Of a DNA stretch of 64,000 nt, positions 60,885 to 61,772 are shown piece by piece. The position numbers and the translations under genes were made by a program. The first letter of the stretch is position 1, and the number at the start of each line of letters is the position of its first letter. Below the pieces are notes generated by a model that saw nothing but the letters and a program-made list of their open reading frames with translations, was not told the origin of the DNA and did not search any database. The stretch is from Eledone cirrhosa (taxonomy: Eukaryota), in NCBI GenBank assembly GCA_964016885.1, contig OZ024760.1, positions 22,940,001 to 23,004,000 on the forward strand, in the 5' to 3' direction.

Positions 60885-61193
60885 TATTAGGGCATCCTAC
60901 TGATGAATTATAGGAGCCCACTTGAATATATATCTATTGATGGTATACAAGCTCCTACATAAATTGGTACAATTTCACCCAAATTGTAGGAATCCTATAA
61001 TGAAACGAGACGTCCGTCTGGGAAGAGATATATTAGATATGTCTCATATGAAATAATGCAGCCAATTTTCCACGCAATACTTTTAGTTAACACCCCGAAC
61101 GCATAATTAGGAATATACTCACTTATTTCCTAATGTTTGTTGAGTGAGTTGGAATTTGGCCGGAGTATCGCTAAAAAGCTTTCTCCGATATTG

Positions 61194-61197
<4 letters not shown>
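60885..61197 (+). mobile_element. Family L element with a long-stem-II HHR at 60895-61023
   Basis: tccta CTGATGA attatagga ...77 nt... tcctataat GAAACG agacgtc CGTC tggga. Confidence 0.8.
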
Positions 61198-61242
<45 letters not shown>

Positions 61243-61246
<4 letters not shown>

Positions 61247-61418
61247 AAAAAGGGATGAAATCGAAAACGCAACTGAAGTCTTATTTTTAAAAAAAATATA
61301 TATATATTTTAAAAAAAAATAAGACTTCAGTTGCATTTTCGATTTCATCCCTTTTTCTTTATACTTCCACTCGTGTAGGACACCTCGGTTATTTTTCATT
61401 TTATAAAAAAAACCTCAC

Positions 61419-61425
<7 letters not shown>
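61243..61425. mobile_element. Family K fold-back element
   Basis: aaagaaaaagggatgaaatcgaaaacgcaactgaagtctta / taagacttcagttgcattttcgatttcatccctttttcttt plus tail shared with 5220-5325. Confidence 0.8.
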
Positions 61426-61461
<36 letters not shown>

Positions 61462-61463
<2 letters not shown>

Positions 61464-61772
61464 ATACATTAACAGAGAAATCTTTAAGCGATACTCTGAC
61501 CAACTCCATCTCACTCAACAAACATTACGATATACCTAAGTATAATCCCAGTTTAGTGTTTGGTGTGCTAACTATACAGTATTTCGTGGATAGCTGGTTG
61601 TATTATTTTATATGAGACATAATTAAATAAATCTCTCTTTCCTTCCATACGATCGTTTCGTTATAAGATTTCTACAAGTTGGGATAAATAATGTCCAGGT
61701 TATGTAGAAACTTGTATATAATCCATAGATATACACACAAGCGGCCTCTTATAACTCATCAGTGGAAGCCCA
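61462..61772 (-). mobile_element. Family L divergent copy with HHR at 61642-61768
   Basis: Minus strand cttcca CTGATGA gttataaga ... tcttataac GAAAC GATC GTA tggaag. Confidence 0.8.

Follow-up and report, generated by a model that had tools for sequence, protein, structure and literature searches.

Two motifs on opposite strands of the window (the whole 64-kb stretch of DNA that was analysed) are best explained as hammerhead folds in truncated copies of a non-coding repeat, probably a non-LTR retrozyme, with a conserved three-way junction on stem II. The element is likely moved by PLEs, probably of the Hydra clade, and its hammerheads are predicted to cleave only as dimers. We give this reading as a whole a probability of roughly 0.68.

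A descriptor scan for type I hammerheads, run over both strands of the entire window, found four, two of which are the motifs of the repeat copies called P and M below. It recovered both hammerheads proposed in the first-pass annotation, with the stems and GUC site of the plus copy and the stems and GUA site of the minus copy. Each has the CUGANGA / GAAA / NUH core, three helices and open stem I of type I, and the distances from CUGAUGA to GAAA are 95 and 96 nt. The parts of the two motifs are as follows.

60890..60893, plus strand: GGGC immediately ahead of stem I, a complement of the GCCC linker (60916-60919) and candidate for a pseudoknot or an off-state pairing with it
60895..61023, plus strand: type I hammerhead motif of the plus copy, from the descriptor scan; cleavage predicted from the consensus
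60895-60899/61019-61023, plus strand: stem I, TCCTA/TGGGA
60900-60906 and 61002-61005, plus strand: core, CUGAUGA and GAAA
60907-60915/60993-61001, plus strand: stem II, 9 bp
60916..60992, plus strand: stem II insert, 77 nt, with GCCCA linker, hairpin A (60921-60951) and hairpin B (60953-60991)
Predicted GUC cut after 61018, plus strand: stem III, ACG-AGACGTC-CGT
61642..61768, minus strand: type I hammerhead motif of the minus copy; cleavage predicted
61762-61756, minus strand: core; stem I is CTTCCA/TGGAAG
61755-61747/61668-61660, minus strand: stem II, 9 bp
61669..61746, minus strand: stem II insert, 78 nt, with hairpin A (61741-61711) and hairpin B (61709-61670)
61656-61649, minus strand: stem III, ACGATCGT; predicted GUA cut between 61648 and 61647

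Rfam returned no hammerhead match in the window at the gathering threshold, and none of its 26 matches to positions 60800-61950 at E-values up to 10 was a hammerhead. The miss is tentatively put down to the stem II insert. As a chance control, a 29-letter two-part hammerhead pattern was compared genome-wide with its reversed form: the pattern had 718 matches, in three subfamilies, and the reversed form 0.

The two further type I motifs in the window lie at 3446-3511 (+) and 7595-7647 (+), with stem II regions of 31 and 20 nt. Between the former and the terminal repeat of a second Hydra-type family (locus L279) the likeness is 80%. Related pieces are found at 3157-3317, 30565-30725, 42217-42390 and 43732-43910.

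The carrier repeat

Both hammerheads belong to 5'-truncated copies of one repeat family. The copies and their surroundings are listed below.

60884..61200, plus strand: 5'-truncated copy of subfamily P; its 5' limit lies just before the hammerhead, and its 3' end is the fixed end of the family, followed by (TA)n
61244..61425, strand not assigned: hairpin of 'family K' (61244-61359) with tail; inverted terminal fragment of a separate RT+GIY-YIG PLE family
61460..61808, minus strand: 5'-truncated copy of subfamily M, its 3' end at 61460 abutting (TA)n
61805..61873, minus strand: fragment of a different, abundant short repeat within the M copy, which it interrupts; 93% to a 128-bp tandem unit at 47570
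61868..61922, minus strand: upstream continuation of the M copy past the interruption, 91% to M unit positions 389-442

The P copy is 97% identical to a P tandem unit and the M copy 95% identical to an M tandem unit. Close relatives are scattered through the genome: 39 others were scored for P among 2,345 first-look candidates (96-97% alike) and 39 for M among 3,338 candidates (95-96% alike). The window copies themselves are 76% alike over 331 columns, in line with the earlier remark that their flanks have clearly diverged. They do lie tail to tail, with a 123-nt inverted repeat (92%) between them, as the annotation had it, but the family K hairpin around which it placed them is a mere neighbour. 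This hairpin matches the terminal repeats of loci L094, L095, L103 and L105 at 91-98%; it is the end of an unrelated PLE and was rejected as a part of the hammerhead repeat. Its source is an autonomous RT+GIY-YIG PLE of 938 aa (L094:2009-4822 on the minus strand, L095, L103, L105), flanked by hammerheads of a U3-A8 core variant. The 128-135-bp short repeat interrupting the M copy forms tandem arrays at 25232-25987 and 47570-48338 and has more than 30 matches within the window. Both window copies are probably inert, because both are truncated and, in the plus copy, the hammerhead fold is 7.8 kcal/mol less stable than the best one (5.4 in a typical P copy).

In the 3.0-Gb genome, which is rich in (TA)n, the 3'-end motif of the repeat has 5,837 matches and the unit-junction pattern 404, each with a control of 0; only the best 40-150 candidates of a genome search were scored. 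Of 223 collected copies 168 are distinct (P 87, M 35, P2 12, N 10, P3 7, 17 others). A sample of 90 copies taken in genome order adds subfamilies T (24 of 46 full motifs) and M2, and the family comprises about seven subfamilies. Copies have ragged 5' ends and stop at one point about 175 nt past the predicted cut, against (TA)n. Like Hydra-type elements, the repeat inserts into (TA)n and has its fixed 3' end 100-200 nt past the hammerhead. Target-site duplications are hidden, since the ends lie in (TA)n.

Head-to-tail units measure about 705 bp in P, 770 bp in M and 990-1,030 bp in T, and the subfamilies M, N, P and T, which differ by up to about 30%, all have tandem units built in the same way. 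They are non-coding and contain one type I hammerhead each, as in non-LTR retrozymes; the longest stop-free frame in two 1-kb units is 82 codons. At 29 of 30 junction loci the next hammerhead follows, recognised by pattern in 25 and with a mutated core in 4, and the remaining locus ends early; beyond the unit junctions no PLE ORF was reached at any of the 30. A carrier in the form of a PLE with its own ORF was rejected, the element being non-coding and likely non-autonomous. No parent ORF was detected at 50 GIY-YIG loci, 17 extended loci, two Hydra-type families or the junction loci. Two candidate parent links were discarded: a match near L096 proved to be microsatellite, and segmental duplication accounts for a 4.6-kb pair in L144.

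After the unit junction AG|GT is kept in all eight M/N/P units, and it is not in the same place in two T units. This donor-like site lies about 35-45 nt after the junction (L045, L313, L315), with a pyrimidine-AG about 90 nt before the hammerhead. No intron-skipping joint was found in the contigs searched, and the case for an intron in M/N/P units is weak. Helitron-like and endonuclease-bearing ORFs near N copies (L149:399-1850 and L151:2-1741, both on the minus strand) are unrelated neighbours. Further hammerhead-like families with ACGATCGT stem III and stem II regions of 20-75 nt were seen at L164, L177, L168, L175 and L184.

Hydra-type PLEs in the same genome

Autonomous PLEs are abundant in this genome. 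Family Q is a young autonomous Hydra-type PLE, whose 830-aa ORF contains RWR, DKT, YRDD, CxCX5C, CxxC and CxH and had no match in a Pfam search. RWK, DKT, CxCX5C, CxxC and CxH are described as marks of the Hydra clade (PMC8557442); the family Q protein (P0001) carries the Hydra-clade motifs, with RWR for RWK, plus GIY-YIG at its C-terminus, and the repeat does not. All 54 scored matches to the ORF are 99-100% alike and without stops. Family Q loci (L241:696-830 and 1133-3622; L249-L278) often form head-to-head pairs. At 22 of 30 family Q loci a hammerhead motif lies about 437 nt upstream, with a 116-nt unbranched stem II and ACGATCGT as stem III. Stem II ranges from 99 to 116 nt in the family and opens with a C-A mismatch. 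Genome-wide, a long-gap hammerhead pattern had 12,210 matches against 15 for its control, and nearly all of the 100 matches listed are Q-like. In the second Hydra-type family stem II is short.

The repeat showed no likeness beyond low complexity to the three autonomous PLE families compared with it. Since no autonomous element with the terminal sequence of the repeat was found among the PLE loci and 30 junction loci searched, the assignment to Hydra rests on features and one composite insertion. The features, (TA)n targeting and stem III loops of 1-3 nt, match Hydra elements as characterised in PMC8557442. The composite, at L339:942-4420, consists of an M tandem joined head to head to a truncated Hydra-type element with no microsatellite between; it is bounded by (TA)n and is a single case. 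Its Hydra-type part has a hammerhead-like motif of its own, with an 82-nt stem II region and ACAATTGT as stem III. By analogy, this locus resembles the inverted structures of PLE insertions, except that it would be built from two RNAs. Other Hydra fragments near the copies are set apart by microsatellites and look like neighbours. No Hydra relative was confirmed among 596 stretches of metagenome contigs.

Selection on the fold and the stem II insert

Compensatory changes had been claimed for all three stems. Between the window copies they are present in stem II (two double changes) and stem I (one) and absent from stem III, where ACG/CGT is identical and the difference is confined to the loop. 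The outermost stem I pairs are private to these copies: CTTCCA occurs in one of the 35 copies of its subfamily, in which CATCCA is usual, and the plus-copy CATCCTA stands where CACCCA is usual.

Beyond the two copies the covariation holds. An alignment of 29 hand-picked copies covered all subfamilies, with the structure derived from the same sequences; at the 3' end the alignment of three P-type rows is off, which counts against stem I there. In it 94.6% of cells are paired and 14 of 37 pairs are double-changed (stem I 1, stem II 3, hairpin A 6, hairpin B 2, stem III 2), eight of them within the insert, compared with at most 2 in slid controls. In a kinship-aware test five subfamily majorities were compared against three nulls. 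Here 6 of 35 pairs are double-changed against 0.72-0.91 expected (P 5e-5 to 3.5e-4; 0.75, P about 1e-4, under a null that keeps relatedness), and in the insert alone 4 of 23 against 0.5-0.6 (P 0.001-0.003). Structural selection on the fold is supported. Lineage changes preserve pairing in 11 of 15 events and rare variants in 41 of 122 (Fisher P 0.004, events counted by hand). As rare within-subfamily variants break pairs in 81 of 122 cases, selection acted on source lineages and not on inserted copies. The original suggestion that the structure was under selection accordingly stands for the source lineages and fails for the two truncated window copies. Lineage changes are absent from nine core sites. 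Paired sites changed no more slowly than the downstream flank (0.276 vs 0.29 changes per site), 4 of 35 pairs are disrupted in one subfamily or another, and a measure of 'further pair types' did not rise above its shuffles (453 of 500).

The large stem II insertion, estimated earlier at about 80 nt, measures 77 and 78 nt in the window copies. Folding it gave a three-way junction with stem II, with domain z-scores of -3.3 (plus) and -4.2 (minus). RNAalifold returned the same junction unprompted on two alignments; double changes affected 9 of 28 pairs in one and 9 of 27 in the other. Its description as unusual agrees with PMC8557442, in which the loops given for Hydra PLE hammerheads have only 3-10 nt. 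One hairpin B pair changes via a U-G intermediate, seen in P2 copies. GGG(C/U) before stem I is the majority sequence in all seven groups, and GCCC at the junction is likewise conserved in all seven; their duplex (GGGC/GCCC) has -7.3 to -9.1 kcal/mol, and no double change at this pairing was seen among the seven groups compared. Judging from complementarity, the two may form a contact, either a pseudoknot or an off-state pairing. Pseudoknots between stems I and II are described as common among hammerheads (PMC3088659).

Two simpler accounts of the fold have to be weighed. One is that AT-rich repeats fold in this way by chance and that RNA structure was not selected; the small number of independent lineages and a structure picked from the data themselves would speak for it. 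It is very improbable given the 14 double-changed pairs against at most 2 in slid controls, the subfamily-level excess (6 of 35 against about 0.75), the junction recovered by RNAalifold on both alignments and the better preservation of pairing by lineage changes than by rare variants. A more serious, though still doubtful, alternative grants selection on the hammerhead and makes the insert a tolerated passenger, so that any self-folding sequence closing stem II would be allowed and the insert would have no function. The other long-stem family here does use an unbranched rod of unrelated sequence, one active Hydra-type family manages with a short stem II, and hairpin A has broken pairs in subfamilies P and N. 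Against this, the length from core to core stays at 92-98 nt in 139 copies (the search pattern allowed about 88-104), hairpin B is 100% paired in the 29 copies, and the linker is nearly invariant. An insert-less ancestor was also sought among 100 of 274 short-gap matches and rejected; these held sporadic deletions of the insert and other families, and no short-stem sister family. The likeliest role of the insert is that of an RNA module, which would hold the ribozyme in position, gate it, or bind the borrowed protein.

Cleavage, mobilisation and known systems

Stem III takes five forms across the subfamilies (ACGATCGT, ACAATTGT, ACGGCCGT, ACGAGTCGT and ACGAGACGTCCGT) and covaries only in subfamilies other than those of the window P and M copies, between which it does not. 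It is self-complementary in 131 of 139 copies, with a self-duplex of -6 kcal/mol or better, and gave no monomer hairpin in eight of eight cases (0 kcal). A short self-complementary stem III that is unstable as a monomer is the mark of dimeric, PLE-type hammerheads, and with 131 of 139 copies of this kind cleavage likely needs a dimer; the dimer model as set out for PLE hammerheads (PMC4209133, PMC6765202) predicts cleavage in that form only. Stem II is not of the PLE type (6-8 bp, small loop, G10.1-C11.1): it has 8-9 bp and a branched insert of 77-78 nt, and its first pair (10.1/11.1) is G-C in three of seven groups and U-U or A-U in four, three of which have U-U.

The genome-order sample of 90 copies was used for a footprint of the cut site. 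It consists of 46 full motifs and 44 copies without a full pattern match, 38 of which were finely mapped, and 6, reaching beyond -165, were left out. At least 52 of the 90 extend past the hammerhead and 2 begin at -1/0 of the predicted cut, so cleavage is not evident in the DNA; 19 begin between -1 and +45. Starts at -2 to +14 number 9 of 74 against 2.3 expected, for an interval chosen afterwards, and AT-rich microhomology or stalling of the RT at the fold explain this cluster equally well. Of nine Xenopus retrozyme dimers reported, one cleaved in vitro (bioRxiv 10.64898/2026.07.22.740005), and for an anole PLE hammerhead protein is described as needed, with cleavage dispensable for insertion in vitro (PMC11167929).

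The following route is proposed along the lines of the retrozyme model described in PMC7229834 and bioRxiv 10.64898/2026.07.22.740005. A tandem source locus would be transcribed, and two hammerheads, joined by pairing of their self-complementary stems III, would cleave at a slow rate, possibly assisted by protein. Unit-length or re-ligated (circular) RNA would result. A borrowed PLE protein could then reverse-transcribe this RNA at a (TA)n nick, starting about 175 nt downstream of the cut, and such target-primed reverse transcription would yield both truncated and more-than-unit copies.

Two other readings keep most of these observations and change their meaning. The same element may have kept its fold for protein binding or RT priming, with no cutting in vivo and the hammerhead serving as a scaffold. 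Most copies read through the cut site, four of seven groups have U-U or A-U at 10.1/11.1, and the anole PLE, as reported, inserted without cleavage and with no read ending at the site (PMC11167929). This reading is improbable, since the nine core sites show no lineage change, the site remains GUH, and stem III has changed in four different ways without losing its self-complementarity, which is what dimer catalysis would lead one to expect. Even less probable is a missed autonomous PLE of which the copies would be simple 3' ends (pLTRs), with the tandem units as by-products. Autonomous families here likewise combine a fixed 3' end with truncated 5' ends and flanking (TA)n, and the limited number of candidates scored per genome search would favour such an oversight, but the absence of an ORF from all 30 junction loci and the shared build of tandem units in four diverged subfamilies speak against it.

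A wider version of the retrozyme reading, which we regard as speculative and on balance unlikely, is that several Hydra-type PLEs and their non-coding parasite share a new stem II control module of 80-116 nt, acting as a pseudoknot switch or as a protein handle that couples cleavage to binding of the Hydra RT/endonuclease, and that the parasite is co-inserted with Hydra elements by two different RNPs at one (TA)n nick. If true, one genome would contain more than 12,000 such ribozymes, unseen by Rfam and by short-loop descriptors. 

Family Q with its dozens of intact ORFs, the non-coding rider and the natural insert-deletion variants would allow the importance of cleavage, of dimerisation and of the insert for mobilisation to be tested directly. 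Engineers use add-on domains to control hammerheads, and a covarying three-way junction on stem II would be a natural example of such an added domain.

Searches for natural hammerheads presume short stem II loops and would miss both the repeat and family Q with its 12,210 matches; in one survey of PLEs the core-only search admitted gaps of 7-17 nt between the two halves of the core. With such families overlooked, hammerheads in genomes of this kind may be heavily undercounted. In the literature searched, with Repbase and Dfam outside that search, no such stem II was found, and the repeat itself or long-loop variants may already have been described. The 'long helix II' of viral motifs, in the usage of PMC13725137, means 6-8 bp.

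Among known systems, metazoan non-LTR retrozymes, as described in PMC7229834 and bioRxiv 10.64898/2026.07.22.740005, are alike in having tandem units that are non-coding, poor in GC and equipped with a single type I hammerhead, and in their coexistence with PLEs. Their reported units span 51-972 bp, a range that includes the present units except for one slightly longer subfamily (about 1,000 bp). They differ in a stem II of about 4 bp plus loop, where the repeat has a three-way junction domain of 92-98 nt; the repeat also occurs mostly as truncated dispersed ends, with arrays of 2-3 units in the loci sampled. The PLE hammerheads of PMC4209133 share the stem I of 4-5 bp, the longer stem II, the palindromic stem III, the predicted dimer and the many covarying families per genome, whereas their stem II is given as 6-8 bp with a small loop and their G10.1-C11.1, described as highly conserved, is G-C, A-U or U-U in the repeat. 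With Hydra-clade PLEs, according to PMC8557442, the repeat has in common (TA)n insertion, a hammerhead about 100-200 nt from the 3' end, a stem III of 3-4 bp with a tiny loop, and U-U or G-C at the base of stem II. There, however, loops 2 have 3-10 nt and the longest of any listed motif has 35 nt, and the repeat lacks an ORF and, compared with two intact Hydra-type families, shows no clear DNA similarity to either. The discontinuous Clec2 hammerhead (PMC6765202) is likewise a natural hammerhead split by a long insertion, but it is described as a single mammalian mRNA motif with several hundred nucleotides inserted, while the insert of the repeat is short, structured, conserved and part of a mobile element. 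The architecture appears to be new for hammerheads and lies within the known PLE/retrozyme kind, with its function predicted.
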